DNA from: Vampirovibrionales bacterium
GTDB taxonomy: Bacteria; Cyanobacteriota; Vampirovibrionia; Vampirovibrionales; JAJTHC01
Reading direction: 5' to 3'
DNA length: 64,000 nucleotides
NCBI GenBank assembly: GCA_044348005.1
Contig: JBIKTR010000004.1
Location: 66,980-130,979 of the forward strand
The notes beneath the pieces were generated by a model. It was not told where the DNA came from. It saw nothing but the letters and a program-made list of their open reading frames with translations, and did not search any database. The position numbers and the translations under genes were made by a program. Below are positions 2,797 through 56,115 of the stretch, piece after piece (the stretch's first letter is position 1; every line of letters starts with the position of its first letter).

Positions 2797-2843
2797 GCGT
2801 GAAAGTTTTAGGGGTTGACAGAGCCCCCTCTTTTTTTACTATC

Positions 2844-2871
2844 TAAATGAAAGCCCTTGATGCTTTTCTCC
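2844..2871 (+). promoter_or_regulatory. Consensus-like sigma70 promoter (TTGACA-16/17-TACTAT) of paralog-family gene 2906
   Basis: TTGACA at 2844 and TACTAT at 2866; same module upstream of the 12939, 21204 and 22179 genes. Confidence 0.5.
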
Positions 2872-2905
2872 ACTTGTTTCCCTCATCCTTAAAAAAGGTC
2901 TTACT

Positions 2906-3610
2906 ATGATTTCTTCTCTCTCTCGTTTTGGCACGTCTTTGCCCGCTTATTCAACCAACCCTGCCTTTACTGCCACGACTGAGAACAGTAAAGCACTAGG
3001 GGTCTCTTCACGGGCTAACACCCAACGCCAAGGCTTTTCTATCTTTACATTCACTGGGATGATGATGGAAACTGATTTAAAACCCAATCAAGTTAGTTTT
3101 ACTCCTTCTCAAGTACAAGATAAACTAACGGATATATTTGATAGAAACCTTCCTCGAGATATTGTTCCTTATCTAAAGGAGCGCTTTGAAAGTGTCTTTC
3201 CCAACACGGCCGATCCACTGACTGTTCTCAAAGATTGGCTTGGGGGGAAAGGGCAGGATACACCGCCAATTACAAAAAAAACGCTTCGTGCCTACATTCA
3301 AGATTGTAAGTTTTATGCAAGGATGTTAGAACAAGCAGAAACCCCAGTTCAAACAAGAAAGACAGGAAAAAAACCGAGCTCAGCTAACAAAACAAAGTTA
3401 GATAAATGGGTAGAAAAAATGCGTGATAAAGAATGGAGTGAACTCCCTCTTACTACAACAGAACAGAGACGATGGGCTTCTTACAAGATTTGGCTTAAGC
3501 TAGAGCTACAACATAGAAACACGACAGATCAAAAACAAGCACGCGGGCAGTTATTTACAAACTTGATTCCTAAATTAAAAGCATTACTACCCCCTGTTCC
3601 AGCCAAGTAG
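2906..3610 (+). CDS. Hypothetical protein, member of a paralog family with shared N-terminal ~45 aa (..N.QRQGF motif) and a unique helical C-terminus
   Basis: N-terminus MISSLSRFGTSLPAY..ANTQRQGFS parallels the 21204 and 22179 proteins; AT-rich C-terminal body; ATG start. Confidence 0.6.
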   Translation: MISSLSRFGTSLPAYSTNPAFTATTENSKALGVSSRANTQRQGFSIFTFTGMMMETDLKPNQVSFTPSQVQDKLTDIFDRNLPRDIVPYLKERFESVFPNTADPLTVLKDWLGGKGQDTPPITKKTLRAYIQDCKFYARMLEQAETPVQTRKTGKKPSSANKTKLDKWVEKMRDKEWSELPLTTTEQRRWASYKIWLKLELQHRNTTDQKQARGQLFTNLIPKLKALLPPVPAK

Positions 3611-4096
3611 TTAGAAAAGAGCCCCCTCACCCCAACCCTCTCCCAGAGGGAGAGGGGGTAAAGCCAGCTTGCCGACGGCGCACTAAATGCGAGGCTTCCG
3701 AGACATTTTGCGCACGGCAGGAACGGAGCGAAAGCGAGAGGGGTGGGATAAACTCATTCACGAAGTGAATCTACTTCTTTAGGATGGAGAGGTTAGGAGA
3801 GGAAACCAACGGTTTTCTTTCCTAAGAGAAAAAGTCAGAGACTTTTTCGACGGGAGGGGGATTCTTAAGGGGGGCATACTGGGGGGAGGGAGGACGTAAC
3901 ACGTCCCTCCCCCCGCCGCCCCTTAAGCCGCTTTGGGGGTTTGGGGAGTCTTTGGCGGGACAAAGACCCCCAAGCACCAGCTCAAAAAGGGAACAAGAAA
4001 ACCCCCTCACCCCAACCCTCTCCCAAAGGGAGAGGGAGTAAAACGCCCTTTCGCAGAGTCTTCTATAATACAGAAAACTCCTAGGTTTAAAGGAAG
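3611..4096. repeat. Mosaic cluster of small palindromic repeats (families R1, R4, R5, R6)
   Basis: R1 hairpin ccctctccc-aga-gggagaggg at 3622-3663 and 4002-4044; 3661-3730 is the reverse complement of 12425-12511; 3735-3835 matches 20896-20996; 3884-3997 is near-identical to 25272-25398. Confidence 0.85.
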
Positions 4097-9289: not shown

Positions 9290-9620
9290 CCTGTAGTATT
9301 TTAAAGAGTTTTCCATACAGTAGGCTAGACAAGGAGCCTAGATTATTTTGTGAAGGAGTGTAGATAGACCTACATGACTGAACAAAATAATCGTAGCGAC
9401 AAAGTATAGACACTGTAGGGGAAATTATTTAAAACACTATAACATAAATCTACAGGGGAGTAGACCGAATCTTTGTTGTCGACGTATACTTAATTTTATA
9501 AGTTTACGAAGCTGTCTTTACTCCCTCTCCCTATGGGAGAGGGTTGGGGTGAGGGATTCGGGATGCCCTATTGGAGCTGGTGTTTCCCTCATCCTAGCAT
9601 AGCCCGCCATAGGCGAGGCG
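9290..9620. repeat. Intergenic repeat cluster (family C element plus inverted R1 element with GWGEGFGMPYWSW extension)
   Basis: 9519-9560 is the reverse complement of the R1 consensus; 9300-9420 shares acagtaggcta..ggagcctagatt and cgtagcgacaa with 39700-39830 and 54525-54650. Confidence 0.6.
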
Positions 9621-10859: not shown

Positions 10860-11025
10860 TTCATAAACAATTAAGAAATTACCCCTTGCATTATTTAAAT
10901 AAGTCGTTCATAATGGTGAAGATGGTTCTTTGAAATTTTCATATACATGTAATGACCCACCAAAAAAGGCAAGTGCTTACGAGGTTTAAACCCCTTTGGC
11001 ACGACGCTGTTTTTTAAAGACATGG

Positions 11026-11462
11026 GGTCGTTCTGGACTTGACAGGACGAATTCTTGTGACTGGGTTGCGCGTCGAGGACGCTTAATCCTCGTTAATCCT
11101 GAGCAAAACAATAAATGCAGAAACTCAAACTGCTCGCAACAATGTTGTTGCTTTTGCACGTCCAGTACGTGCAAAAATCGCTGCTTAATTCTTTTAAGTA
11201 GTAAACATTGCTTGTTCCCACACATGCTATCATGCTGCTAAGGTGGGCTTGCTAATTCGCATGACCATGCTGAAAGACTCATTGGCTCTTCAGTACAGCG
11301 TATGCGTCAATGCGTCCGAACACGGACGTAAAACGGGTTAAAGTTCGTGGTGAACTGGGGTACACAGCTACCACGAAACGAAACACTCTAAAGTTACCTA
11401 CACGCGTAGACGCCTGGAGGCAATCGTTTTGGACGAGGGTTCGATTCCCTCCGACTCCACCA
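11026..11462 (+). ncRNA. ssrA: Transfer-messenger RNA (ssrA)
   Basis: 5' GGGGUCGUUCUGGACUUGACAGGACG and 3' GGACGAGGGUUCGAUUCCCUCCGACUCCACCA (T-arm and acceptor with G3-U70); tag frame GCU CGC AAC AAU GUU GUU GCU UUU GCA CGU...GCU GCU UAA gives ARNNVVAFARPVRAKIAA, resembling cyanobacterial ANNIV.FAR..AA tags. Confidence 0.75.
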
Positions 11463-12259: not shown

Positions 12260-12850
12260 CTTCTGTTCCCTCTCCTGATTTTGGCTAGCTCCGTTTAACG
12301 CTGGTGCTTGGGTTTCTCGCTCCCTTTTTGAGCTGGTGCTGTCAGAGACCTTTGCTCGCACAAAGGTTCTCCGACACCTCTAAATGCGCTTAAGGGAGGG
12401 AGGGTCTTGGTCGCCCCCCTCCCTTAAGAATCCCACCCCTCTCGCTTTCGCTCCGTTCCTGCCGTCCGCAAAATGTCTCGGAAGCCTCGCATTTAGTGCG
12501 CCGTCGGCAAGTTTTTCAGAAACCAACTTGTTCACAATTTTAAAATGAAGTGTTGATTTTTGACTCGTTGCACCAGCCGACGTCCAAGCACTAAATCCGA
12601 GCGGGTGAGCGCACTGCGAATCCCCGAGCGATTTTGCGGACGTCCCAAAGGTGCAAGTGGAACAAGCGAAGAGGTTGAGATGGGGGGTGGATTTTTAAGG
12701 AGGGGGGAAGAGAAGGAGAGCCGCAACAACTTCCTTCTCTTCCCCCCTCCTTGAACCGCCTTTAGAGGTGTTGGAGACCTTTGGCGGAGCAAAGGTCTCT
12801 GACAACGACCAGCTATAAAAACAAACGAGAAACCCAAAATCAGGAGAGGG
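12260..12850. mobile_element. Composite MITE-like element bounded by imperfect ~100-bp terminal inverted repeats
   Basis: 12270-12400 is the reverse complement of 12730-12850 (ccctctcctgattttgg / ccaaaatcaggagaggg; tgtcagagacctttgctcgcacaaaggt / ggagcaaaggtctctgacaa); interior carries an R6 copy (reverse complement of 3661-3730) and a 50-bp perfect palindrome at 12694-12745. Confidence 0.65.
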
Positions 12851-12859
12851 CTAGGGGGG

Positions 12860-12888
12860 TTGACGGCGGTTTTTCTTTGCGTTACGAT
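12860..12888 (+). promoter_or_regulatory. Family promoter TTGACG-17-TACGAT upstream of the 12939 gene
   Basis: Aligned with TTGACA-17-TACTAT modules at 21112-21140 and 22086-22115. Confidence 0.5.
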
Positions 12889-12938
12889 TCAAACTAAAGC
12901 TCACCCGCTTTTCTCTATTTACGTCTCTCCTTCAACCG

Positions 12939-13478
12939 ATGAAAGGTGCTTTTCATGCGACTCTCGCCCTCTTACCCACGCCCCACGATGCCCTTGTCGA
13001 TGCCCCAGCCTGCGCTGACCCCCCCAATAGCAAAAGTATAGCGAATCAATCCCTCCACCAGCGCTCGGGGTTTAGTGCTGAGGAATGGCGATTTCTGAAT
13101 AGTCAATTGAGTGAAATAGCTGACCTACAATACCTTTCCAAAGACGACTTGTCTAAATCTATGATTGTTCAAGATCCTAAGGCTGTTTTCAATAGATTAC
13201 ACGAACTATTGATGCGTGGTAAATTATACATACATTGCTTAACAGAGGAAGGCTTTCTTACAAAACCACGACAGGAACAGTGGGATATAATTAACGCGTT
13301 TCATCAGGAAGAGAACATCAACCCGTCGATTTTAGCAAATAACGAAATAGATACTCCCTTGTTAATGTCACAAAGCGATAATGAAGGAGGGTTCTCTCAA
13401 GCAGAGATTAGACATTGGTGGGAAACGTTCGTAACAAGAGTAGAAGAAGTAATCAAAAACCTCACTCCCTCCCCATAG
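12939..13478 (+). CDS. Paralog-family member with recoded N-terminus (frameshift in C7 tract compensated by a new upstream ATG)
   Basis: The family-conserved ATGCGACT start is at 12955 but that frame stops at ~13040; an ACG-to-ATG change at 12939 opens a frame that rejoins the family frame after the ccccccc tract (13016-13022): NSKSIANQSLHQRSGF versus NNKSKVNNSTSALNQRQGF in the 22179 protein. Confidence 0.5.
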   Translation: MKGAFHATLALLPTPHDALVDAPACADPPNSKSIANQSLHQRSGFSAEEWRFLNSQLSEIADLQYLSKDDLSKSMIVQDPKAVFNRLHELLMRGKLYIHCLTEEGFLTKPRQEQWDIINAFHQEENINPSILANNEIDTPLLMSQSDNEGGFSQAEIRHWWETFVTRVEEVIKNLTPSP

Positions 13479-13508: not shown

Positions 13509-15698
13509 ATGGATGCCTTAGCTCTTACCCCCCTTCAACAACGATGCCAAACGTGGTCGCAACTCGCCCAAGCCCGAAATTGGTCCGCGCTTGACGCCCT
13601 TAATCAAGACACGATCAACACCCTTAAACAGGCGTGGCAAGGCCACGGCGTGCTTGCCACCCTACAATGGAACCCCCACCCCGGAGATCTGGCGGGCAAC
13701 GCGCAACTGGTGGAACAGGCCATGCAATTCGCCGAAGCCCTCGGCGCCGATGCCCTTGTGCTTCCAGAACAAACGCTCTTGGGCTACCCCTTGCGAGACA
13801 TGCTCTTGCGCTTTCCCAAGCTGGTGAAAGACAATGAATCGGCGCTACAGGCCTTGGCGTTAAAATCAGGCCACACGCGGGTTTTTGTGGGTTTTGCTGA
13901 GCGTCGTTACGACGCGGATGAAGGCTGGGGCCATTCCTGGGGCAAGCCGTATTACAACAGCGTGGCCATTTTAGGCGGGGGCGTCATTCAAGGCGTGGTG
14001 CGAAAAAGCCTGTTGCCGAATTACCATGAATTTGAAGATTCTCGGGTGTTTGAAGCCAGCGAAACCCCCGGCGTCCAGCGATGGGAACTCCCTCACCCCA
14101 ACCCTCTCCCAGAGGGAGAGGGAGTAAGACAGGGGGCTGTGGCCTTAGAACCCTCTCCCTCTGGGAGAGGGCAGGGTGAGGGTTTCGACCAGCTCGAGGG
14201 GGGGGAAGACCCTCATCCTAACCTTCTCCCAGAGGGAGAAGGAACAAAACCCCCTCACCCCAACCCTCTCCCAGAGGGAGAGGGAGTAAAAGACCCCCTC
14301 GACGCCTACGGCAACATCACCATTCACGGACGCAAGTTCGCCGTGACGGTGTGTGAAGACCTATGGGCGAACGAACCGAATCAACACCCGTGGTACAAGC
14401 AAAACGTCGTCGCCCCGCTCATGCAAGGGCATCCCGATGTGCTGGTGAACCTGTCGTCGTCGCCGTCTCGGGCGGGCAAGGAATACCGCAGGCAGTCGCT
14501 CTTGCGTTCGATTGCCACGCAGTACCGCACCCCCATTCTCTACGTCAACCAAGTCGGCGCGGTGGATGAACTCATCTTCGACGGAGGCTCTCGGTTGGTG
14601 GGGGCGCACGGCGAAATGCTCAGTCGTTCGCGCTTGTTTGAAACGCAGTTTAGCCTGCATCATCTGCAAAACACGGCCTTTCACACCCTTGAAGACTGGG
14701 TGCCTGATGTGGAACTTTCCCAACGAAGCCTGCCCAACGATGTGTTTGACCCCTACGATCCAAGCGATTTGCCGCGCACGTATGCCGCCCTGACCTGCGG
14801 GATTCGCGATTACTTCGACAAATGCGGATTCACGCGCGCGGTGTTGGGCCTTTCTGGCGGACTCGATTCCGCCGTCAATGCCGTGTTAGTGGCGGATGCC
14901 TTGGGGGCTGAAAACGTGCTAGCCTTTAGCTTTCCTTCTGAGCTCACGCCTGCTGACAATAAAGACGACGCCCTACAACTCGCCCAAAATCTTGGCATCG
15001 GCTGGGTGGAAATCCCTATTTCGGCGATGCAATCGGCGTTTTTAGAGGGCATTGACGCCGAACGCCAAACGCTAGAATCGTTGTGGGGCAAGCCGACTAG
15101 CGAAAGTTTTGCGAAAGACAACGTACAAGCCATGAGCCGTGCGACGCTGTTGAGACTCATTGGCAATGATTACCGCGCCCTGCCCATTGCCACCAGTGAC
15201 AAAAGCGAGTTTTACATGGGTTACGCCACCGTGAATGGGGATATGTCTGGGGCGTTGGCGCCGTTGGGCGATGTGTGCAAAACCAAGGTGCGCGCCTTGG
15301 CCCGCTGGATCAATCAACAGCGCGGGGGGGTGATACCGCAAGCCGTGGTGGAACGTCCTTCGGGGGCGGATTTGGCGGTGAATCCGCAAACAGGCCAACT
15401 GTTGACGGCCGAAGAAGCGTTGATGCCCTATGAAGTGATTGACGAGTTGATTTGGCGGATTGAAGCCCACCACCTAGATGCCGCCCGCCTAAGCACCCTG
15501 CTGTGGAGCTGGGAACGCACGCACGGTAGACTTGAACCCACGCAGAAGGCGGCGTGGGTGGGTAAGTTTTTTAGGCGCATGCAGGCCAGTGTGTTTAAGT
15601 GGTGGGTGGCCCCGCCGATGTTGCTGGTGGACGCCAACGGCACGCTGGCAAAATCGGCGTACCACCCCGTGATTACCGCAATGAAGACGCTATACTAG
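13509..15698 (+). CDS. nadE: Glutamine-dependent NAD+ synthetase (nitrilase domain plus NAD synthetase domain) carrying an in-frame 70-aa repeat insertion
   Basis: N-terminal CN-hydrolase region (VCEDLWA); C-terminal NadE (LGLSGGLDSAV P-loop-like SGGxDS); ATG at 13509, the ORF can extend to TTG 13491. Confidence 0.85.
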   Translation: MDALALTPLQQRCQTWSQLAQARNWSALDALNQDTINTLKQAWQGHGVLATLQWNPHPGDLAGNAQLVEQAMQFAEALGADALVLPEQTLLGYPLRDMLLRFPKLVKDNESALQALALKSGHTRVFVGFAERRYDADEGWGHSWGKPYYNSVAILGGGVIQGVVRKSLLPNYHEFEDSRVFEASETPGVQRWELPHPNPLPEGEGVRQGAVALEPSPSGRGQGEGFDQLEGGEDPHPNLLPEGEGTKPPHPNPLPEGEGVKDPLDAYGNITIHGRKFAVTVCEDLWANEPNQHPWYKQNVVAPLMQGHPDVLVNLSSSPSRAGKEYRRQSLLRSIATQYRTPILYVNQVGAVDELIFDGGSRLVGAHGEMLSRSRLFETQFSLHHLQNTAFHTLEDWVPDVELSQRSLPNDVFDPYDPSDLPRTYAALTCGIRDYFDKCGFTRAVLGLSGGLDSAVNAVLVADALGAENVLAFSFPSELTPADNKDDALQLAQNLGIGWVEIPISAMQSAFLEGIDAERQTLESLWGKPTSESFAKDNVQAMSRATLLRLIGNDYRALPIATSDKSEFYMGYATVNGDMSGALAPLGDVCKTKVRALARWINQQRGGVIPQAVVERPSGADLAVNPQTGQLLTAEEALMPYEVIDELIWRIEAHHLDAARLSTLLWSWERTHGRLEPTQKAAWVGKFFRRMQASVFKWWVAPPMLLVDANGTLAKSAYHPVITAMKTLY
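14086..14295 (+). repeat. Four palindromic repeat units inserted in frame within nadE
   Basis: R1 units at 14089-14136 and 14253-14295 and R2-like units at 14148-14196 and 14210-14250 translate as LPHPNPLPEGEGV...PSPSGRGQGEG...PHPNLLPEGEGT..PHPNPLPEGEGV between VQRWE and LDAYGNITIHG. Confidence 0.85.
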
Positions 15699-16639: not shown

Positions 16640-17175
16640 ATAGAACCCTCCCTCCTCCTAGCCTCCTCCCTTAGGGAGGAGGAACAAGAACCCCCTCACC
16701 CCAACCCTCTCCCAGAGGGAGAGGGAGTAAATACAGAACCCTCCCTCCACCTAACCTCCTCCCTAAGGGAGGAGGAACAGAACCCTCTCCCTAAGGGAGG
16801 AGGAACAAGAACCCTCTCCCTTAGGGAGCACGCCTCGCCGATGGCGGGCTACGCAGGGTGAGGGAAACGACCAGCTCCAGTGGGGAAGAGTCCCTCCTCC
16901 TAGCCTCCTCCCTTAGGGAGGAGGAACAAGAACCCTCTCCCTTAGGGAGAGGGCAGGGTGAGGGAAACGACCAGCTCCAGTCGGGAAGAGTCCCTCCTCC
17001 TAACCTTCTCCCAAAGGGAGGAGGAATAAGAACCCTCTCCCTTAGGGAGAGGGCAGGGTGAGGGAAACGACCAGCTCCAGTCGGGAAGAGTCCCTCCTCC
17101 TAGCCTCCTCCCTTAGGGAGGAGGAACAGAACCCCCTCACCCCAACCCTCTCCCAGAGGGAGAGGGGGTAAATAC
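16640..17175. repeat. BIME-like tandem mosaic array of hairpin units (families R1, R2, R3)
   Basis: About 11 units: R3 cctcctccc-tta-gggaggagg (LLLASSLREEEQ), R2 ccctctccc-tta-gggagagggcagggtgagggaaacgaccagctccag (three copies), and R1 at 16686-16730 and 17133-17175; irregular unit order with no unique spacers. Confidence 0.85.
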
Positions 17176-17207: not shown

Positions 17208-19145
17208 ATGAACGCCCCCTATTCCCCCGATCAAAACCCCTACGTCCACCTTGCGAGCTTTTGCCGAACGGCCGTGTGGCAAGAAATGGATGCCATTAAC
17301 GAAGCGCTGCCCCCTGAAGCCCAGTTTTTGGCCCGCCTGCAAAGCCCCCCCGCCTGGGATGCCCGCCGCCAAGCCATCATTGAAAAACGCACCGCCCTTT
17401 ACGAACGCCTCAAGCAAGACGACGCGCTGGCCGAACTCATGCACCACGACTGCCGAAACAACATCCTGCTGTGGTTTCGCTACTTCGCGTGGACGTACGA
17501 CCCACGCCCCAACCCCTTTCAAAACGGCAATCGAAGCATTGGGCGCGTGCCCTTTGTGCTGTACCCCTTTCAAATGGAAGTCGTCTTGCGCTTGAATGAA
17601 GCCATTGAATTGGGGGAAGATTTACTGGTGGAAAAAAGCCGAGACATGGGCCTTTCTTGGTTAATTAGTTTGGTGTTTCAGTACCGCTGGTTGTTTCATT
17701 CAGGCCAGCAATTTTTGGTGGGCAGTCGTAAATACGGCCATGCAGACACGCGCGGCGATCTTTCCACGCTGATGGAAAAATGCCGTTTCAACCTGCGTGA
17801 ACAGCCCACCAATATGTTGCCTGCGGGCTTTGACTTTCGCAAGCACGATGTCGCCGGTCGTCTGCTGAATCCGCAAAATGGCAATACCATTATTGCTGAA
17901 GCCACTACGGAAAACTTTGCGCGGGGGGGGCGTTATTCCGCCGTATTGCTGGACGAATTTGCGTTTTGGATGTGGGATGATGGCGCCTATGCTGCGGCGG
18001 GTCAGTCCACGCTGTGTCGCTTGTTGGTGTCAACGCCCAACGGTCGAAAAAACCGCTTTGCCCTAGAACGCTTTTCAGGCCTTACCCCCGTGCTAACCGT
18101 GCATTGGAGCCTTCACCCTTTTAAGGACAAGGTGTGGTACACCGCACAGCAACGGCGCCTGTTGAAGCATGAAATCGCGCGAGAGCTGGATATTAGCTAC
18201 GAATACTGCAATCGAGATCGCGTGTTTGAAGAGTTTACCGCTCAACATGTGGCGCACGTGGCGTATAATCCGGATTTGGAGATTTTGCGTTCGTGGGATT
18301 TTGGGTACCATACGCCTGCGGTGTTGGCCTTACAGCGGGACGAATGGGGCCGTGTGGTGGTGTTGAAAGAATGGGTGGGCCAACGCGTGGTGCTCAAAAA
18401 CTTTGCCCAGCAGGTGAAAGACGACTGCGTGGCGATGTTTGGCCCCAATGCGCGCTTTCGCGATGTGTGTGACCCTGCGGGGCATCAGCATAACGACAAA
18501 TCTGAAAACACCAGTATTGAAGTGCTCAATCGCATGGGTATTCACCCTGTGGGCGTGCGATGTGGCGTGGTTGCTAGCATTGACAAGCTTCGCCACCTGA
18601 TGATTGAAGAGCGCGATGTGCCAGTGTCCCTCACCCCAGCCCTCTCCCAAAGGGAGAGGGAGCAAGGCGACCCTCACCCCAACCCTCTCCCAGAGGGAGA
18701 GGGGGTAAATACAGAACCCTCTCCCTTAGGGAGAGGGCTGGGTGAGGGACACGACCAGCTCCTGTGGGAACAAGGCATCCCTCCACCTAGCCTCCTCCCT
18801 AAGGGAGGAGGAACAAATGCCAGTGAAGAAGCCGTCTTCATGCGTGAAGGCCAGCACATGGTCAAATCCCCCGCCTTTTTGGTGGATGCTCAACATTGCC
18901 CCACGCTCATTGACGCCTTGCAAGGGGGGTATCGCTATGTGTCGAATGATTCGGAAGAACTGGCGCAGGAGCATCCCTTTGAAGATGTGGCGGATGCCTT
19001 GCGTTACGCCGTGTGGGAATTGGGCAAACTGCTGATGGATTCGTCTGATTGGGCGCGGGACTTGCGAAAGGAGCGGTATCAGAAGTGGGAAGCGTTGGAA
19101 AAGTTGCGTCGCTACAACCAGCGCCGTGGGCAGTGGTATGCCTAG
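17208..19145 (+). CDS. Phage terminase large subunit (Terminase_6-like) with in-frame repeat insertion
   Basis: KSRDMGLSWL P-loop variant (KSRQ.G.S type), VLLDEFAFW Walker B, C-terminal nuclease region WDFGYHTPAVLAL...DVCDPAG; no portal, capsid or small-subunit genes nearby. Confidence 0.75.
   Translation: MNAPYSPDQNPYVHLASFCRTAVWQEMDAINEALPPEAQFLARLQSPPAWDARRQAIIEKRTALYERLKQDDALAELMHHDCRNNILLWFRYFAWTYDPRPNPFQNGNRSIGRVPFVLYPFQMEVVLRLNEAIELGEDLLVEKSRDMGLSWLISLVFQYRWLFHSGQQFLVGSRKYGHADTRGDLSTLMEKCRFNLREQPTNMLPAGFDFRKHDVAGRLLNPQNGNTIIAEATTENFARGGRYSAVLLDEFAFWMWDDGAYAAAGQSTLCRLLVSTPNGRKNRFALERFSGLTPVLTVHWSLHPFKDKVWYTAQQRRLLKHEIARELDISYEYCNRDRVFEEFTAQHVAHVAYNPDLEILRSWDFGYHTPAVLALQRDEWGRVVVLKEWVGQRVVLKNFAQQVKDDCVAMFGPNARFRDVCDPAGHQHNDKSENTSIEVLNRMGIHPVGVRCGVVASIDKLRHLMIEERDVPVSLTPALSQREREQGDPHPNPLPEGEGVNTEPSPLGRGLGEGHDQLLWEQGIPPPSLLPKGGGTNASEEAVFMREGQHMVKSPAFLVDAQHCPTLIDALQGGYRYVSNDSEELAQEHPFEDVADALRYAVWELGKLLMDSSDWARDLRKERYQKWEALEKLRRYNQRRGQWYA
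18625..18822 (+). repeat. R1-R1-R2-R3 repeat units inserted in frame within the terminase gene
   Basis: Translate as SLTPALSQREREQGDPHPNPLPEGEGVNTEPSPLGRGLGEGHDQLLWEQGIPPPSLLPKGGGTNA, in the same orientation and frame type as the nadE insertion. Confidence 0.85.
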
Positions 19146-19149
19146 TCGG

Positions 19150-19503
19150 TTAAATTTCTTTGAGCCTGTAGAGCTTAAACACTTGAGACACGACTTGCCC
19201 TTGCGTCACCTGCAAACGGCTGGATTCCGCCTTAATGAAATTAACGACCTCCTCATCCACACGGAGCGTCAGGATTTTAGCCCCTGTTTTGGGCTTGCGT
19301 CCTGCTTTTTTCATGGGCTTAAACTTGCCCTGCAAAAAAGCTTCGTAAGAAGAGTCAAGCATCTCGTAAAACATTTCGTAAGCGTCTTCTCGTTTTTCTT
19401 CGACCCCTGCAATGTTAATACACAGGGGAGAGGTGACGATAAACGCGTGGTCTTCTTCGCTCCACTTGCAGGTGACACTGTTTTTGATGGCGTCTAAATC
19501 CAT
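19150..19503 (-). CDS. hicB: HicB-family antitoxin
   Basis: N-terminal HicB tadpole-like region (HAFIVTSPLCINIAGVEEKREDAYEMFYEMLD) plus C-terminal RKPKTGAKILTLRVDEE RHH-like tail; 1-nt overlap with hicA. Confidence 0.7.
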   Translation of the reverse strand: MDLDAIKNSVTCKWSEEDHAFIVTSPLCINIAGVEEKREDAYEMFYEMLDSSYEAFLQGKFKPMKKAGRKPKTGAKILTLRVDEEVVNFIKAESSRLQVTQGQVVSQVFKLYRLKEI

Positions 19504-19727
19504 TAGGCTTTTCCTTCTTGTTTAAGTAACTGTAAAAAAGTTTTGACGTAATGCGGTTTGATGTATCGTTTACGGCCTTTACTGTGAAAAATGGCGAAGT
19601 TCAAAAGGTTCACACCGTTTTCATCGGCGATGTAGTGGTGACTTTTACTTGGAAGAATCGTCCAGCCGGCTTGTTTAACCAGTTTTTCAAATTGACTCAA
19701 ATCCATGGGTTTATAATGAGACGGCAT
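19503..19727 (-). CDS. hicA: HicA-family mRNA interferase toxin
   Basis: LSQFEKLVKQAGWTILPSKSHHYI...HSKGRKRYIKPHYVKTFLQLLKQ matches the HicA/YcfA fold pattern; start uncertain (ATG 19727 with AGAAAGAG SD, 19706 or 19748 possible). Confidence 0.65.
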   Translation of the reverse strand: MPSHYKPMDLSQFEKLVKQAGWTILPSKSHHYIADENGVNLLNFAIFHSKGRKRYIKPHYVKTFLQLLKQEGKA

Positions 19728-19981
19728 GAGATCTCTTTCTTGGCACATTTTATAATTATATATTAGCGTAATACAAAATAAATTACAAGTGCTTTAAGCA
19801 AAAAAACTGGCGTTGGAAAAGTTGCGTCGCTACAACCAGCGCCGTGGGCAGTGGTATGCCTAGTCGGTTGCGGGCGATGCTTCCTGTTTGCTTTCTGTGC
19901 TAGCCCGCCCCCTCGACAAGTGCGTGAAAATAGGGTAGACTAGGGGCAGTTGTTGCGTTGTGTGTGGAAGGAAATGCCCCC

Positions 19982-20859: not shown

Positions 20860-21110
20860 GAAAGTGGATTTACTCCCACTCCCTTAGGGAGAGGAAAACA
20901 AGCTTCTCATTCACGAAGTGAATCTTCACCTTTAGGAAGGAGAGGTTGGGAGAGGAAACCAACGGTTTTCTTTCCCAAGAGAAAAAGCTTGCTTTTTCGA
21001 CCATGGTGGGGTGAGGGATTTGGGATGTTCAGTTATAGCTGGTGTTTCCCTCCCTTAGGTCGCACGCCTCGCCTATGGCGTGCTCCCTAAGGGAGGAGGG
21101 AGAGCGAGGG
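20860..21110. repeat. Intergenic repeat cluster (R1 fragment, R4 copy, inverted R1 with GWGEGFGMF extension)
   Basis: 20896-20996 matches 3735-3835 (attcacgaagtgaat palindrome); 21005-21050 is the reverse complement of R1 plus the extension seen at 9560-9600 and 56040-56075. Confidence 0.6.
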
Positions 21111-21111
21111 G

Positions 21112-21140
21112 TTGACAGCCGTGTTTCTTTGCTTTACTAT
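21112..21140 (+). promoter_or_regulatory. Family promoter TTGACA-17-TACTAT with conserved ~65-nt 5' UTR
   Basis: Perfect -35 element, 17-bp spacer, TACTAT; UTR tcaagctaaagcacgatcgcttttatctacgacgccccctcatcctgacgaaag is 95% identical to 22118-22170. Confidence 0.6.
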
Positions 21141-21203
21141 TCAAGCTAAAGCACGATCGCTTTTATCTACGACGCCCCCTCATCCTGACGAAAGGTCTCT
21201 TCT

Positions 21204-21812
21204 ATGCGACTTCAGCTTTCTGCGTTAGCCGCCAGCCCGTTGAATCCCCAACAACAAGCCCCATTGACCCACAACAACAATAGTCTAGTCAAAAATACCC
21301 CGCCCGCTTTGGCCCAACGTCAGGGGTTGACGGAAGTTCTGGTTCAAGAGTTAGAACACCAATATACTCAAATAAGATTCAAATTAAGAAGTGTAGATGT
21401 TACCACTACTTTTGAAAAGTTTGCAAGATTAAGACAATTAGAAACACTCATTAATAAGGCTGAGTGTTTCATCAATTGTTTAAATCATCCTGAGTGGGCG
21501 ACTACAGACTGTGCTGGAAAGGTTAAGATCCTTAAGGATTTTGCAAGAGAATTAGGTCTATCTCGGACAATCAACGTAGCTACTTTTAAGACACATATTA
21601 CACACTCCAATAATAATGACTTGCCAAATAGAGCCTTGCGATCTGAATTGAATAGATTTAAAGAACGATTGAAAGCATATTTAGAAGGTGCGTTTAACAA
21701 TGAAGAAATACAGCGTTATTTAAAGCATGTACGTACAAAGAGTCGCATTCCTAGTGATAATGATCGTGAAATACATCCATGGCGTTATCCCAATCTATTG
21801 ATCCTAGCCTGA
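21204..21812 (+). CDS. Paralog-family protein (MRLQLSALAASPLNPQQQAP...AQRQGL N-terminus, unique AT-rich helical C-terminus)
   Basis: First ~45 codons alignable with the 22179, 2906 and 12939 genes; remainder unrelated. Confidence 0.6.
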   Translation: MRLQLSALAASPLNPQQQAPLTHNNNSLVKNTPPALAQRQGLTEVLVQELEHQYTQIRFKLRSVDVTTTFEKFARLRQLETLINKAECFINCLNHPEWATTDCAGKVKILKDFARELGLSRTINVATFKTHITHSNNNDLPNRALRSELNRFKERLKAYLEGAFNNEEIQRYLKHVRTKSRIPSDNDREIHPWRYPNLLILA

Positions 21813-21905: not shown

Positions 21906-22085
21906 GGTCGCCACGCCATAGCTTGCCACATATACCGCCTTTACCACAGATTCATCAAACATAAAAACGCCTTCTTTCTTTTTTGTGTGCTGTGGCTATT
22001 ATACCCCCATCCTGAAAAAGAAACCACTGCTGGCTCGCTTCCTGCCCCCGCTCCCTTTGGGAGAGGGTTGGGGTGAGGGGGAAGT

Positions 22086-22115
22086 GTTGACAGGGGGGAG
22101 GCTTTGCGATACTAT
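22086..22115 (+). promoter_or_regulatory. Family promoter TTGACA-17-TACTAT with conserved UTR
   Basis: Aligned with 21112-21140. Confidence 0.6.
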
Positions 22116-22178
22116 TCAAGCTAAAGCACGATCGCTTTTCTCTACGACGCCCCCTCATCCTGACGAAAGCTCTCTTCT

Positions 22179-22775
22179 ATGCGACTTCAACTCTCTTCGT
22201 TGCCTGCCCGCCCGATGAATACCCAACAACAAGCCCCATTTACCCCCACCAATAACAAAAGTAAAGTGAATAATTCTACCTCCGCTTTGAACCAGCGTCA
22301 GGGGTTTACAACGAAACTATTAGAAAAAATGATAGAGTCTTCAAACGCTTCACAAGGATTAATCGAGAAGATTAAAAATAGTCGTCCTGCTGATAAACAC
22401 AAGCAATTAGAAAAGTTAATAAAAACTATTGAGCAGGCTCACTATATTACAACTTCTTTAAGCGATCCGATCTGGTTAGCATTAGATGAATTTTCTAGTC
22501 TTTTAGCTATGAATAATCTTGATTCTCTAAGGCGTTTAGGTACAGCTTCTGGGCTAAAAACAGCACTTAGGTCTTTTAAACAAAGTAGACCTCGTCCAAC
22601 TGACGAAGTGATAACCCAGTTAGCAGAAGGTTTTTATGCTTTACGAAACTCGTTGGAAGCTTTTGTACTAGAACAGCAAAATGAAGCAAAATTAAAAAAA
22701 TATATACTTGGAAAAACAAGGTATGGATTATGGCATCCTCGTTATAAAACAACTAATGCCCCAGTCGACCTTTAG
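22179..22775 (+). CDS. Paralog-family protein (MRLQLSSLPARPMNTQQQAP...NQRQGF N-terminus, unique C-terminus)
   Basis: Shared promoter, UTR and N-terminus; stop lies 2 bp from the convergent folD stop. Confidence 0.6.
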   Translation: MRLQLSSLPARPMNTQQQAPFTPTNNKSKVNNSTSALNQRQGFTTKLLEKMIESSNASQGLIEKIKNSRPADKHKQLEKLIKTIEQAHYITTSLSDPIWLALDEFSSLLAMNNLDSLRRLGTASGLKTALRSFKQSRPRPTDEVITQLAEGFYALRNSLEAFVLEQQNEAKLKKYILGKTRYGLWHPRYKTTNAPVDL

Positions 22776-25189: not shown

Positions 25190-25450
25190 GGGTGAGGGGG
25201 CTTTCTCATTCCGTTTAACGCTGGTGCTGTCAGAGACCTTTGCTCGCACAAAGGTTCTCCGACACCTCTAAATGCGCTTAAGGGAGGGAGGGAGGACGTA
25301 ACACGTCCCTCCCCCCGCCGCCCCTTAAGCCGCTTTGGGGGTTTGGGGAGTCTTTGGCGGGACAAAGACCCCCAAGCACCAGCTCAAAAAGGGAACAAGA
25401 AAACCCCCTCACCCCAGCCCTCACCCAGAGGGAGAGGGAGCGAGAAAACC
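25190..25450. repeat. Intergenic mosaic repeat cluster (R5, R1 variant, TIR-like segment)
   Basis: 25205-25290 matches 12300-12400; 25272-25398 is near-identical to 3884-3997; R1 variant at 25406-25445. Confidence 0.75.
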
Positions 25451-31571: not shown

Positions 31572-32735
31572 ATGGCAATGACCAGCTATACAACGCTAGA
31601 GGTGGAAAACTTCAAGGGCATCCGTAAGATGAAACTTGAGGGCTTGGGCATGGTGAATGTGTTTGTGGGGGGCAACAACGTCGGCAAGACCTCCGTTTTG
31701 CAGGCGTTGAATATACATTTTAATAACTCTCAAAATAGACATAATGAGGTTGTGGAAAATTTGAAAGGTCATTTTTACGATGGTGTATTAACCCATTTAA
31801 TTGACGAATTAAATCCTGTTAATAATTTTTATAAGACTCTTACGGATAATGTAAAAATACAGATTGAGACGGATTTAGACTGTAGCTTCATAAGTGCGAG
31901 ATTCGATTCAAGCAGTGCAAGCCCTAGTATTGAAATAGAACCATCAATCGAGTTGTCTTATTCCCAAAAAGGAGTATTATGTAACACTCATAGAACTCCA
32001 TCAATAATCACGATCTTAGTAGATAGTTTGGAAGAAATAAAAACAAGAAAAGTTAGTAATATACTCGAAGTTTATCGTAACTTTAATAAACAATCTCATT
32101 ATATTGGAAGCAAAGCTGATGTTACAAAATTTTCAGAACATCTGTTTCAAACTTATATTGAAAATAAGCAAAAGAACAAGGTTATTACTTTATTGCAAAA
32201 ATCAATTCAACCTAACCTTATTGATATCGTGTATGCACCTGCAAGTAAGCTACTATGTGAGTTGAGTGATTATCCTAAGATGATTCCCTTAGACGTCATG
32301 GGTGACGGTTTTGTTAAGCTGTTGGGTTTGGCTTGTCTAATAGGTATACCTAAAAATATTTTCCTTGTTGACGAACTTGAAAACGGGTTTCATTACAGCG
32401 TCCAAGAAGACATGTGGCGGATGATCCTCACCGCGGCGAAAGAAGACGGTACGCAGTTCTTCTTCACCACCCACAGCTACGAGGTGCTGGAATCGTTGAA
32501 CGCCATGACGCAGAAAATCACCGCTGAATGGGAACAAGAAAAAGCTGAAGGCTATCAAGACGGCAAACTCCTTGTCGGTGAAAACAAAACGCCTATGGAA
32601 CCTGTCTGTGTGTTTGAACTTGAAAAAAGTACAGATGATGTGGTGACATACAAAAGATTTGCAGGAAAATCTTTAAATGGGGCAATAAAGCGTCACATGG
32701 AATTAAGAGGGAAAGGTGCAAATGCTCATGGCTAA
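31572..32735 (+). CDS. AAA15/ABC-type ATPase of a predicted two-gene defence module (AriA/OLD-ATPase-like)
   Basis: Walker A GGNNVGKTS, signature-like MGDGFVKLL, Walker B IFLVDELENGFH, H-loop FFTTHS; AT-rich (~35% GC); 3' end overlaps the next gene by 20 nt. Confidence 0.75.
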   Translation: MAMTSYTTLEVENFKGIRKMKLEGLGMVNVFVGGNNVGKTSVLQALNIHFNNSQNRHNEVVENLKGHFYDGVLTHLIDELNPVNNFYKTLTDNVKIQIETDLDCSFISARFDSSSASPSIEIEPSIELSYSQKGVLCNTHRTPSIITILVDSLEEIKTRKVSNILEVYRNFNKQSHYIGSKADVTKFSEHLFQTYIENKQKNKVITLLQKSIQPNLIDIVYAPASKLLCELSDYPKMIPLDVMGDGFVKLLGLACLIGIPKNIFLVDELENGFHYSVQEDMWRMILTAAKEDGTQFFFTTHSYEVLESLNAMTQKITAEWEQEKAEGYQDGKLLVGENKTPMEPVCVFELEKSTDDVVTYKRFAGKSLNGAIKRHMELRGKGANAHG

Positions 32736-33555
32736 TCCTTCCGTTTTAATCATTGTCGAAGGTGAGACAGATAAAGAATGTATCCGTAAAATTTTCGACT
32801 TCAATAAAGAAGACGCTGAAATCCACGCTTTATCTGACTATATACCGTTTGACGAAAACTTGTGTCAATACGAACATACAGGTGGATTCAACCATTTAAA
32901 AGACACTTTGGAAAAACGATTGCTTAGTGACATACTGCCACTTCTTGATGCGGAATGTCTTAAAGCGATTGTTTTAATTGTAGACGGCGATAATGAACCT
33001 ATCTCTAAGCGTCTTCAAGATATTCAAAAGGCTTTTAGTTCCATAAAAGAATTCCAAGAGACAGGACTTATCCCTGATTTTACAGAAAAAGACTGTAATT
33101 CTTTTAGACCTTTAACGATACAGACAAACTCCAAAAAATATCCTTTAGAATTTGGAATCTATATTTTTCAGGATTCAACATATCAAGATTTGGAATCTTT
33201 TTTATTCGCTACAGCAAAAACAAAGAAGCCTACACATCATAAGATCGTGGCTAAGTTTAGAGAAACGTTAAAAAAAGAACTCGTTGATTCAGAGGGGCAG
33301 TATATTGGTCCGAAATATAAAAACGCAGAAGGTAAACATAACGGTTCTTTAAATAAAGCCATTTACCAGATTTATTTACATACCCAACAAGAGCTAGATG
33401 GCTATAGGCGTAATATAGATAAACGACTCGACAAATTTTTTGATTTTTCATTTACAGGGATTGATCAAACCTCACCCATGTGGAACATAAAGAATTGCTA
33501 TGAAGACTTGAAACGCATCATAAATCAAGACGTTACGGCAAAAGAGAGTCCTTAA
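32716..33555 (+). CDS. Standalone TOPRIM-like protein (DUF4435/RloB-like; AriB-like nuclease partner)
   Basis: LIIVEGETDK (TOPRIM Glu) and LIVDGDNEP (DxD) motifs; translationally coupled to the upstream ATPase; AT-rich. Confidence 0.6.
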   Translation: MQMLMANPSVLIIVEGETDKECIRKIFDFNKEDAEIHALSDYIPFDENLCQYEHTGGFNHLKDTLEKRLLSDILPLLDAECLKAIVLIVDGDNEPISKRLQDIQKAFSSIKEFQETGLIPDFTEKDCNSFRPLTIQTNSKKYPLEFGIYIFQDSTYQDLESFLFATAKTKKPTHHKIVAKFRETLKKELVDSEGQYIGPKYKNAEGKHNGSLNKAIYQIYLHTQQELDGYRRNIDKRLDKFFDFSFTGIDQTSPMWNIKNCYEDLKRIINQDVTAKESP

Positions 33556-33640
33556 AGCGTCCCAATAATCGAGGGGTTTAGGCATTCGGCAGGGCGTTGA
33601 AAAGGCGTCATCCTGAAAAAGTAGTAGGCTAGCTTCCTAT

Positions 33641-33668
33641 CCCCCCCTCCTAAAATCAGGAGGGGGGG
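33641..33668 (+). terminator. Hairpin cccccctcct-aaaatc-aggagggggg downstream of the ATPase/TOPRIM pair
   Basis: 10-bp GC-rich perfect stem 85 nt after the stop. Confidence 0.4.
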
Positions 33669-33700
33669 ACAAGAACAATAATCGTGCTATACTCAAGGGT

Positions 33701-35563
33701 ATGCAAACACTCATCCAACACTTTGAAAAACAGTGGGCGAAAGTCCTCGTCTACCTGTCGATATTCGGCTTGCTTCTGCACGGCGTTTTCATCTTCGCCT
33801 CCCCAACCCACGCCCAAATCCCCCTCATCGCCCTGCTTTGGGTCGGTGCCGTCCCGCTGACGATAGAAGCCCTCATCAAGCTCTACCAAAAAGACTTCGG
33901 GGCGGATCTGCTCGCTGTTCTCGCCATGCTCACCAGCCTAGTCATGCACGAATACCTCGCAGGCGGACTCATCGTGCTGATGCTCGCAGGCGGTCAAAGC
34001 TTGGAACAATACGCCCTTAAAAAAGCGTCTTCGGTGCTTGAAGCGCTGGCTAAACGCATGCCCAATACGGCGCATCGTCAAGAAGGGGGCGAGATTGTGG
34101 AAGTCCCCCTCGACGACATCAAAGTCGGGGATTTACTAGTGATTTTCCCCCACGAAACCGCCCCCGTCGACGGCATCGTGCGTGAAGGCAACGGCACCAT
34201 GGATGAATCCTACCTCACAGGCGAACCCTATCAGGTTTCCAAAGCACCAGGCTCTTCGATTTTGTCGGGAGCGATTAACGGCAACGCCGTTTTGGTGATC
34301 GAAGCGGAAAGGCCTGTGGCCGATTCTCGTTACGCCACGATTATGCAAGTCATGCAAGACGCCGAAGCCAAACGTCCCAACCTTCGACGTTTAGGCGATC
34401 AAATCGGGGCCATTTTCACGCCAATTGCGTTAGCAATTGCCCTTGTCGCATGGGGCTTAACAGGCGATGCCACACGCTTTTTGTCCGTTTTGATGATTGC
34501 CACGCCCTGCCCCTTGCTCATTGCGATTCCCATTACCATTATTAGTGCGATTTCTCTGGCTGCCAAGCACGGCATCATCATCCGAGACCCTGGCATTCTC
34601 GAGCGTTTACCGACCTGTCGCACCGCCATTTTCGACAAAACAGGCACGCTCACTTATGGTAAACCGACTTTAACCGAAATCATCCCCAGTACGCCTTTTA
34701 CTCGCCGAGAACTGCTGCAAGCGGCGGGCAGTTTGGAGCGTTATTCTAAGCATCCGCTAGCCAACGCCTTGATTGAAGCCGCCACCGAAGAGCATTTGGT
34801 GTTGCCTCAAGCCAGCGAAGTGTCTGAAAAACCGGGGCAAGGGTTATTTGGCGTCATTAACGGCAGGGGCTGGCATATCACGAGTCGCCAAAAAATTGGC
34901 CAAAACTGGTCGCAGTTGCTCCCACAATTGCCTCAAAGCACCGTGGGTTTGGAGTGCATCTTGCTTTGTAATAACCAACTGGCTGGCGTTTTTCGTTTGC
35001 GGGATGAGGCACGCTCCGAAGGCAAGTCTTTTATCGGGCATTTGGCACCAGCGCATCAGTTGAACAAGGTCATCTTGCTTTCAGGGGACAGAGCCTCTGA
35101 AGTGGCGTATTTGGCGGATGTCTTGGGGATTGAAGAGACCTTTGCCGAACAGTCTCCCGAACAAAAGGTGGATATTGTTCGAAAAGAAACGGCGTTGGCC
35201 CCCACCTTGTTTATGGGCGACGGCATCAATGATGCGCCCGCCTTAGCCACAGCCACGGTGGGCTTGGCCTTTGGTCAACAAAACAATGTGACCAGTGAAG
35301 CGGCGGGGGCGGTTATTTTAGAAAACACCTTACACAAGGTGGATGAACTCTTACACATTAGTTTGTCGCTACGAAGTATTGCGTTGCAAAGTGCGGTGGG
35401 TGGAATGGTGTTAAGTGTGGTGGGTATGGCACTCGCGGCGATGGGGTACATCTCGCCTGTGCAGGGGGCGTTGGCTCAAGAAGCGATTGATATTTTAGCC
35501 ATTGCCAATGCCTTGCGTCTGGCGTGGCAACCGAATATCGCGACAGACATGCACAGTCATTAA
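33701..35563 (+). CDS. P-type ATPase, probably P1B heavy-metal transporter lacking an N-terminal metal-binding domain
   Basis: DKTGTLT phosphorylation site, GDGINDAPAL hinge, TGEP, and a PCP-type motif (ATPCPLL) in the TM helix. Confidence 0.8.
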   Translation: MQTLIQHFEKQWAKVLVYLSIFGLLLHGVFIFASPTHAQIPLIALLWVGAVPLTIEALIKLYQKDFGADLLAVLAMLTSLVMHEYLAGGLIVLMLAGGQSLEQYALKKASSVLEALAKRMPNTAHRQEGGEIVEVPLDDIKVGDLLVIFPHETAPVDGIVREGNGTMDESYLTGEPYQVSKAPGSSILSGAINGNAVLVIEAERPVADSRYATIMQVMQDAEAKRPNLRRLGDQIGAIFTPIALAIALVAWGLTGDATRFLSVLMIATPCPLLIAIPITIISAISLAAKHGIIIRDPGILERLPTCRTAIFDKTGTLTYGKPTLTEIIPSTPFTRRELLQAAGSLERYSKHPLANALIEAATEEHLVLPQASEVSEKPGQGLFGVINGRGWHITSRQKIGQNWSQLLPQLPQSTVGLECILLCNNQLAGVFRLRDEARSEGKSFIGHLAPAHQLNKVILLSGDRASEVAYLADVLGIEETFAEQSPEQKVDIVRKETALAPTLFMGDGINDAPALATATVGLAFGQQNNVTSEAAGAVILENTLHKVDELLHISLSLRSIALQSAVGGMVLSVVGMALAAMGYISPVQGALAQEAIDILAIANALRLAWQPNIATDMHSH

Positions 35564-55989: not shown

Positions 55990-56115
55990 CTCTAAAAAAG
56001 TGGCTTTACTCCCTCTCCCTCTGGGAGAGGGTTGGGGTGAGGGATACGGGATGCCCCGTCAGAGCTGGTGTCCCTCCTCGCGACAACAAAGAGAACATAG
56101 ACCATTTTATCTTTC
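55990..56115. repeat. Inverted R1 element with GWGEGYGMPRQSW extension plus a family C fragment
   Basis: 55996-56045 is the reverse complement of R1; 56070-56110 cgcgacaacaaagagaacatagaccattttatc resembles 39790-39826. Confidence 0.7.

Follow-up and report, generated by a model that had tools for sequence, protein, structure and literature searches.

Comparison with described systems

The erp genes of Borrelia burgdorferi (ospE/ospF/elp, the 'upstream homology box' family) carry one promoter/operator, a leader polypeptide and the first mature residues on many paralogues, and the remainders of their open reading frames (ORFs) are diverse and recombine often within and between strains (PMC10016077). 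This study concerns an arrangement of a similar kind in 64,000 bp of DNA from a Vampirovibrionales bacterium (assembly GCA_044348005.1, contig JBIKTR010000004.1, positions 66,980 to 130,979 of the forward strand; hereafter the window). Four genes there, members 1 to 4 or 2906, 12939, 21204 and 22179 after the starts first assigned to them, have a common promoter, leader and N-terminal peptide (the N-module) on diverse C-terminal bodies (Table 1). They belong to an undescribed and apparently lineage-restricted family built of two parts that have separate evolutionary histories. Our tentative reading is that a module for expression plus targeting or processing is set on diversifying, recombining cargo and that copies may be turned on and off at a poly-C tract. 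Among described systems the erp family is the closest analogue in kind, without homology, since a shared promoter/operator and leader peptide on diverse recombining bodies is found in the Vampirovibrionales family as well. The Erp leader, however, is a lipoprotein signal peptide, whereas the N-module has neither a hydrophobic core nor a lipobox, and erp genes occupy one allelic site on cp32 prophage plasmids, whereas the present family is chromosomal and lies among housekeeping genes.

The terminal reassortment of type III effectors likewise reuses a promoter, 5' untranslated region and disordered N-terminal signal on different C-terminal parts. The N-module is like a type III signal in being rich in S, T, N, Q and P and having almost no acidic residues, a weak and non-specific likeness, and one family lineage (locus L016) tolerates a frameshifted stretch inside the N-module. 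Frameshift tolerance of type III signals is discussed in a preprint (bioRxiv 10.1101/2023.04.10.536236). Type III signals are not conserved in sequence, whereas the N-module is. Pfam scans of the larger ORFs found no type III apparatus in the window, and in Melainabacteria we know of no injectisome, but solely of the flagellum of V. chlorellavorus.

In polymorphic toxins (CdiA-CT after VENN, Rhs-CT after PxxxxDPxGL) the DNA of a junction motif is the crossover point for cassette exchange. The family resembles them in its conserved N-terminal part, junction motif and recombining C-terminal cassettes, with QRQG[FL] holding the junction position. Contact-dependent inhibition (CDI) and Rhs proteins, however, are very large and secreted, with an immunity gene and toxin domains, whereas the proteins described here have 150-250 residues; no downstream immunity ORF accompanies them, and no Pfam toxin domain was found in any family body.

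In type IV pilins and pseudopilins, too, the 5' end of the gene and the N-terminus are conserved, and the C-terminal part is hypervariable, under positive selection and exchanged horizontally. Prepilin leaders such as ...QRG/FTLIE (the slash marks the junction) resemble the QRQG/F[TS] junction, and the module ends in G-[FLVI] in all subtypes, in agreement with Gly at -1 and Phe, Met or Leu at +1 of prepilins. The junction of the B2 subtype reads G/FCLVEL, and Glu at +5 is present in that subtype only. The family leader, at about 43 residues, is far longer than is typical of prepilins. We rejected a prepilin reading of QRQG/FT because there is no hydrophobic helix of about 20 residues (none of the four window proteins has a Kyte-Doolittle mean over 19 residues above 0.14 within its first 70-75 residues) and no match to N_methyl or TIGR02532. 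A precursor of a ribosomally synthesized and post-translationally modified peptide with a Nif11/NHLP-type leader was also rejected: there is no Pfam or NCBIfam match, the junction has a single Gly, and the 'core' would be a helical domain of 120-190 residues.

A common promoter and leader

The earlier note on this DNA, made by eye, had seen a consensus-like sigma-70 promoter before each of the four genes, with the hexamers that we also find. An nhmmer profile built from the four upstream regions and searched against the window has four matches only: 2801-2904 (E = 6e-24), 12846-12960 (3e-29), 21098-21209 (7e-35) and 22073-22184, all between 6e-24 and 7e-35, the fifth-best hit having an E-value of 5.8. 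A degenerate promoter-leader pattern matches the window at the same four sites and has no match in 100 shuffles. Each copy consists of TTGACA/G, a spacer of 16-17 nucleotides (nt) and TAC(T/G)AT, followed a few bases past the -10 hexamer by the inverted repeat AAAGC-N6/7-GCTTT, which is invariant across copies and lies at about +1 to +17. The rest of each leader is a pyrimidine-rich stretch and AAAGG 8-9 nt ahead of the ATG.

The leaders of 21204 and 22179 have 2 differences in about 63 positions, close to the 95% identity first estimated. A leader that was merely a stray intergenic repeat ahead of unrelated genes had been raised as a refuting outcome, and it was not borne out: the family N-module follows every copy, 4 of 4 in the window and all copies in 16 related loci (L numbers below). 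From the -10 hexamer to the ATG, the leader of the window and that of locus L013 differ at 5 of about 72 nt (about 93% identity). The adjacent folD genes of these two genomes have a synonymous divergence (dS) of 0.56, which shows that the leader DNA itself is under sequence constraint. Single-sequence folds of the leader are no more stable than those of shuffles (z from -0.8 to +1.5), RNAalifold predicts the 5-bp palindromic hairpin as the sole structure of the leader with no covarying pair, and an Rfam search has no match for the leader or 5' module. A repetitive extragenic palindromic (REP)-like repeat lies next to some promoters and was considered as part of the module; it was rejected because it occurs genome-wide, the window alone having 12 copies.

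The N-terminal module

Each leader is followed by a module of about 44 codons that exists in several subtypes. Type A (21204 and 22179) reads MRLQLSALGARPMNTQQQAPFTPPNNKSKVNNSTSALAQRQG[LF]T, type B (2906) MI[SP]SLSRFGASLPAYSTNPAFTATTENSKALGVSSRANTQRQGF[SC], type C MITTMTPV...FTPPNTKSIA...ALQQRQG[LF] and type D (the kin of 12939) MRLSPSSPRPTMPLSMPQPALTPPNNKSIANQS.LHQRSGF. The core common to the module subtypes is [FL]TPPNNKS followed by QR[QS]G[FL]. The claim that all four genes share one N-terminal module holds in part. It is clear for 21204 and 22179; 2906 has a distinct subtype (MISSLSRFG...NTQRQGFS) that has in common with the others only the motif frame M..(L)S, FT, N.SK and QRQGF; and the ORF first drawn at 12939 is not in the family frame. 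The similarity did not vanish on proper alignment, the other outcome named as refuting, and the motif frame extends to 2906. The N-module of 2906 is 91-95% identical in amino acids to those of the three relatives compared by codon (dS 0.06-0.12), and their bodies are 23-53% identical. On the whole, the picture of a conserved expression module (promoter, leader and about 44 codons) on variable bodies stands.

A divergent member occurs at L006 278-856 and L014 2626-3240 (MQLLPSIDGPSLYPPKTQ...AFLQRQGFTEE...). It keeps the QRQGFT junction and its upstream region is undetected by the leader profile, indicating that the family is wider than a leader-based count.

The QRQGF motif is encoded by CAG CGT CAG GGG TTT in type A and by CAA CGC CAA GGC TTT in type B, so that four of the five codons differ synonymously. 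That the motif is kept through different synonymous codons shows selection at the protein level. In diverged pairs (22179 vs L013, 22179 vs L014 and L013 vs L014) the ratio of nonsynonymous to synonymous divergence (dN/dS, omega) of the N-module is 0.35-0.5, and in-frame indels of 12-42 nt are tolerated within it. The N-module has 48-60% G+C (window 48%), a charge of +3 to +5 with 0-1 acidic residues, 49-60% S/T/N/Q/P and no hydrophobic segment. In an AlphaFold2 (AF2) model of 22179, residues 1-40 are predicted to be disordered (predicted local distance difference test, pLDDT, below 50), and a confidently modelled helical body comes next. No hydrophobic stretch, no RR motif and, in type A and B N-modules, no Cys were found. 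By its hydropathy, and by the Pfam and NCBIfam searches, the N-module is thus not a Sec, Tat, lipoprotein or prepilin signal.

The bodies

The bodies have 120-190 residues and 35-39% G+C and are predicted to be helical, in agreement with the earlier note. They are less unrelated than they look by eye. With the module removed, bodies of the 22179 type match those of the P0006 type with a BLASTP E-value of 3e-15 over 144 residues and an hhalign E-value of 5.7e-13, and P0006-type bodies match those of 21204 at 3e-10 (BLASTP) and 2.4e-8 (hhalign). These sequence comparisons show that the body of 21204 is distantly homologous to that of 22179. The merged type-A superfamily matches the type-C bodies at 3.9e-10, and its match to the kin of 12939 is borderline (hhalign E = 1.3e-4, probability 53%). 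Neither BLASTP nor hhalign detects similarity between the type-A superfamily and the bodies of 2906 and its kin. The description of the four bodies as completely different thus fails for 21204 and 22179, is doubtful for 12939 and stands for 2906 alone. A motif seen by eye and without statistics, a-Y-F-x-x-C-L-x-D-P-x-W, is central in most body groups. The AF2 model of 22179 is all-alpha with three long helices (pLDDT 72.7), and that of 2906 (pLDDT 51) is too poor for fold comparison.

Many bodies (e.g., P0048, P0006, P0029 and P0030) end in a short K/R cluster (PKKRVRKKRP, RKRIRGG, KRRRRMG, RKKKKNG), which is sometimes followed by an aromatic/Pro motif (YPWYRTY, HPWRYPN). The cluster could be a signal of the kind used by type IV secretion systems (T4SS), a nucleic-acid-binding tail or an element like a nuclear localization signal.

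Recombination and selection between strains

Bodies have moved between genomes, as the earlier note had proposed under the name of cassette shuffling. Between the window and L013, the body of the 22179-type gene has a dS of 0.06, whereas its N-module has 0.44 and the adjacent FolD, as given above, is older still. The breakpoint lies at about 22285-22295, just 5' of the QRQGFT codons, and identity is about 99% from about 22290 onwards, indicating that a body cassette moved recently between diverged genomes. L013 also carries a fragment of about 95 nt of the window-type folD 3' end behind its family gene. In comparison with L010, the flanks are about 100% identical and the 22179 gene is replaced whole by another member, from about 22060 to 22775. 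Family members are concentrated at either edge of the folD-SDF block and at further breaks in synteny, and which member is present varies from strain to strain. Among paralogues within one genome, the dS of the N-module ranges from 0.03 (L008a/b) to 0.40 (21204/22179), and the bodies are saturated.

The bodies appear to diversify under positive selection. Gene 21204 and its counterpart L010a have about 30 point differences across the coding sequence (CDS) plus two in-frame indels, and their upstream flanks are 97-100% identical. None of the differences in the body is synonymous (dS 0.00, dN 0.06) and at most one in the N-module is. Among 22179 orthologues the omega of the body is 1.1-2.0 and that of FolD 0.01-0.17. 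Because the substitutions in 21204 vs L010a involve all bases and are mostly transversions, and so are not adenine-specific, we rejected the possibility that the gene is the target of a diversity-generating retroelement; no reverse transcriptase was found in Pfam scans of 29 of the larger ORFs of the window.

In some strains a gene of 269-279 amino acids lies between the family gene and folD: L006 1681-2511 (-), L013 868-1677 (-) and L014 4139-4978 (-). It has no PHROGs or PADLOC match and none in the precomputed Pfam column. The folD 3'-end copy of L013 is on the other side of this gene, which suggests that a gene was inserted or that a recombination tract was imported.

A poly-C tract inside the module

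The start at 12939 used in the earlier note was a framing artefact. That ATG sits inside the Shine-Dalgarno region of the consensus leader; the family-aligned ATG is at 12955, from which translation gives MRLSPSYPRPTMPLSMPQPALTPP and then a stop, the frame being lost at a run of seven cytosines (C7). Past the tract, the module continues (NSKSIANQSLHQRSGFS) into the body in the -1 frame. One added C yields an intact family protein of 174 residues, and the N-module repaired in this way differs from that of its intact relative P0050 by about four changes (three substitutions and a one-residue indel).

Tract length varies at orthologous positions. P0050 itself is encoded at the D-type orthologous locus upstream of nadE in L015, where the tract is C8 and in frame. 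The D-type gene of L016 has C7 and one additional C, in a short run of C that lies 45 nt upstream, by which the frame is restored and 15 codons are read in the other frame (P0045). Among type-A genes, those of L010 and L011 have an in-frame C8 at the same tract position, and those of L005 and L008 an out-of-frame C9, past which 150 codons are still open. An intact orthologue, P0048, exists (L010 4001-4549). Some family members carry an interrupted tract. Exact in-frame ('ON') versions of the two out-of-frame genes were absent from the protein collection searched. The out-of-frame products recur on several independent contigs, which makes random sequencing error unlikely.

As in the contingency loci of Neisseria, Haemophilus and Campylobacter, a poly-C tract in the 5' coding region has one-base length differences that switch the frame at orthologous loci. 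The tracts here are short by comparison (7-9), and their variants are known between strains. From its pattern among the assembled sequences, the length variation looks like contingency-locus switching, or at least like a recurrent on/off mutational hot spot.

Distribution of the family

A census was made by searching 1.84 billion representative proteins with a full-length family profile, which found 23 clusters at E <= 0.001. A profile of the N-module only, run against a set of 5.8 billion proteins, returned just two truncated members and is of no use as a census; truncated members of 70-73 residues (P0051, P0052) exist. None of the family members has a match in Pfam, NCBIfam, PHROGs, PADLOC or PDB sequences, and the four window proteins have no Pfam or NCBIfam match at E <= 0.01, so the suspicion that the family is undescribed is confirmed. 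It appears to be restricted to Vampirovibrionales metagenome genomes; one homologue is named Vampirovibrionales at NCBI, and identical or near-identical contigs occur in JGI freshwater metagenomes. A metagenome contig collection scanned with the leader pattern and the family alignment gave no match, evidently because it does not hold these samples; the pattern itself works, since it matches the window and the related loci retrieved.

What the family may do

Within the cyanobacterial lineage, Vampirovibrionales are to our knowledge the only branch of predators. Hardly any of them have been cultured, and we know of nothing about the proteins that they use on their prey. On the two-part reading put forward at the outset, the near-consensus sigma-70-type promoter, the leader of about 63 nt and the 44 or so codons would constitute a common expression unit together with a protein-level address, which may serve as a signal for export or loading, as a leader cleaved at the G/F junction, or as both. 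The second part is the AT-rich, all-alpha body, diversifying under positive selection, whose variants are exchanged between paralogues and strains by homologous recombination anchored in the conserved module and the flanking genes. The poly-C tract inside the module gains and loses bases, leaving copies in frame (C8) or out of it (C7, C9). Most economically, the bodies would interact with a co-evolving outside partner. The comparisons above show the shared module and its confinement to family genes, mosaic recombination, a dN/dS of at least 1, polymorphism of tract length at orthologous loci and selection on QRQGF as protein. We infer from them an export or delivery of the products (to prey, for instance), with the N-module as the signal. 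V. chlorellavorus, a relative available in culture, depends on preying on algae and has a T4SS, a flagellum and type IV pili (PMC4451040), which makes prey-directed proteins plausible and names no pathway. A bolder version, in which an N-module ending in QRQG/[FL] would be the recognition and cleavage signal of an undescribed export or delivery route in predatory Melainabacteria, and the cargo would be prey-directed, arms-race effectors reshuffled at the signal/cargo junction and switched by poly-C slippage, we regard as distinctly unlikely.

Several observations weigh against the two-part reading. A dN/dS near 1 and frameshifted and truncated copies are also expected of a decaying family. The tract-length differences are seen between assemblies, not within a population, and the fold of 22179 resembles generic helical bundles only. 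None of the members is linked to a secretion apparatus, a chaperone, a toxin domain or an immunity gene; their neighbours are housekeeping genes, and the N-module fits no known signal class by Pfam, NCBIfam or composition and hydropathy. The taxonomic label of the family-bearing genomes comes from the titles of metagenome-assembled genomes (Vampirovibrionales), and one locus, L003, is labelled Gammaproteobacteria.

The likeliest alternative, which we nevertheless think rather unlikely, is that these are co-regulated intracellular proteins: the palindrome would be a repressor operator, the N-module a partner-binding or degron peptide, and the bodies would be engaged in a within-cell arms race (e.g., with phage or mobile elements) without any export. 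The invariant AAAGC-N6/7-GCTTT lies across the predicted start of transcription, where operators are typically placed, and the absence of a signal peptide and of linked secretion genes is in its favour. The window also holds an AbiLi/PDC-M38-like defence pair and a terminase-like gene, making phage pressure plausible, and strain-level hypervariability is typical of defence loci. However, no member has a PADLOC or PHROG match, the members are single genes among housekeeping genes outside defence islands, and a disordered basic N-terminus with 0-1 acidic residues and a strict G-[FL] junction looks less like a degron than like a peptide for targeting or processing.

A decaying or selfish duplicated family, with relaxed constraint, pseudogenisation at a slippery homopolymer and a 5' module kept by gene conversion and recent duplication, would account for the omega of about 0.8-1.1 in several pairs of family genes, for the out-of-frame copies in the window and in L005 and L008, for the 70-73-residue members and for the N-module dS of 0.03 between paralogues of one genome, which indicates conversion. 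We consider it improbable, as omega is clearly above 1 in 21204 vs L010a (dS 0) and 1.8-2.0 among the 22179 orthologues, ORFs of 120-190 codons stay open in DNA of 35-39% G+C even past frameshifts, a helical domain is modelled with confidence by AF2, the L016 gene has regained its frame through a second indel, and the leader and QRQGF, the latter through different codons, are conserved across genomes whose FolD dS is about 0.5. Very improbable is that the 5' region works chiefly at the RNA level (as a structured leader, a riboregulator or a small-RNA target) into the first 130 nt of the CDS, the peptide being incidental, for although the leader is conserved at the nucleotide level, the N-module dS is low in several pairs and strains differ in the frame in which they read the D-type DNA (P0045 vs P0050), the leader folds no better than shuffles, shows no covariation and has no Rfam match, QRQGF is kept via synonymous codons, and the N-module tolerates in-frame indels.

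The family unites three features that mark genes for interaction with a host or prey: positive selection, cassette exchange between otherwise identical strains, and homopolymer on/off variants. Promoter and leader, N-terminal peptide and junction motif together provide a sequence handle for candidate interaction proteins in any Vampirovibrionales genome. Should the N-module prove to be an export or processing signal, it would represent a new signal class; if it is not, the family is still a clear case from nature of modular evolution of the erp kind among chromosomal genes. Should the freshwater metagenomes in which these contigs occur come from a time series, the dynamics could be followed in them directly.

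Other features of the window

Table 1. Positions of the family members and of other features in the 64,000-bp window
Feature	Position	Strand	Description	Basis
Promoter, member 1 (type B)	2815-2842	+	TTGACA 2815-2820, 16-nt spacer, TACTAT 2837-2842	Sequence and pattern match
Leader, member 1 (about 63 nt)	2843-2905	+	Palindrome/hairpin AAAGC-N7-GCTTT 2850-2866, pyrimidine-rich tract, AAAGG 8-9 nt 5' of ATG	
N-module, member 1 (type B)	2906-3037	+	MISSLSRFGTSLPAYSTNPAFTATTENSKALGVSSRANTQRQGF	
Body, member 1 (type B1)	3038-3610	+	AT-rich, predicted helical at low model confidence	
Transfer-messenger RNA (tmRNA) gene	11024-11462	+		Rfam RF00023, 134 bits
Promoter, member 2 (type D)	12860-12888	+	TTGACG, 17-nt spacer, TACGAT	Pattern match and leader profile
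Member 2	12955-13478	+	Family ATG 12955; frame broken at C7; body to stop 13476-13478 in the frame of ATG 12939	
Poly-C tract (C7)	13019-13025	+	Encodes TPP of the module; out of frame here	
Terminase-like ORF (645 residues)	17208-19145	+	Phage terminase large subunit families	phrog_2, E = 1.5e-16; no Pfam match
Two small overlapping ORFs	19150-19748	-	Antitoxin (BrnA-like) and toxin (HicA-like)	Weak matches, E about 0.002-0.01
Promoter, member 3 (type A)	21112-21140	+	TTGACA, 17-nt spacer, TACTAT	Sequence and leader profile
Member 3	21204-21812	+	N-module, then helical body	
N-module, member 3 (type A)	21204-21329	+	MRLQLSALAASPLNPQQQAPLTHNNNSLVKNTPPALAQRQGL	
Promoter, member 4 (type A)	22087-22115	+	TTGACA, 17-nt spacer, TACTAT; REP-like repeat directly upstream, 22059-22080	
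Member 4	22179-22775	+	N-module, then all-alpha domain of three long helices; gene converges on folD	
N-module, member 4 (type A)	22179-22307	+	MRLQLSSLPARPMNTQQQAPFTPTNNKSKVNNSTSALNQRQGF	
Defence candidate (two genes)	31572-33555	+	AbiLi/PDC-M38A-like AAA ATPase, then DUF3226/PDC-M38B-like protein	E = 8e-44 (ATPase)
ABC exporter	62453-64000	-	ABC_membrane and ABC_tran; cut by the window end, N-terminus (any C39 peptidase domain) outside the window	
REP-like repeat	3623-3644, 4003-4024, 9535-9556, 14089-14110, 14251-14272, 16692-16713, 17133-17154, 18627-18648, 18670-18691, 22059-22080, 25405-25426, 56023-56044			

The genes flanking the family members are ordinary chromosomal ones: aminotransferase IV, a HAD hydrolase, a GGDEF protein, murG, tmRNA, nadE and folD, with a dicarboxylate symporter, a two-component system, a penicillin-binding protein and leuS as further neighbours in the window. 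Directly downstream of members are folD, nadE, the SDF transporter and the GGDEF gene.

The REP-like repeat, GGGAGAGGGTTGGGGTGAGGGG, compares with 0 copies expected by chance and is often found beside its own complement as a hairpin. Some copies are within long ORFs, two in the 735-residue nadE ORF and two in the terminase-like ORF, and others flank family genes. No other recognisable phage genes were found around the terminase-like ORF, which may be a prophage remnant or a domesticated terminase. The two small ORFs next to it may form a toxin-antitoxin pair. The defence candidate lies in the stretch of lowest G+C in the window (40% at 32001-34000).

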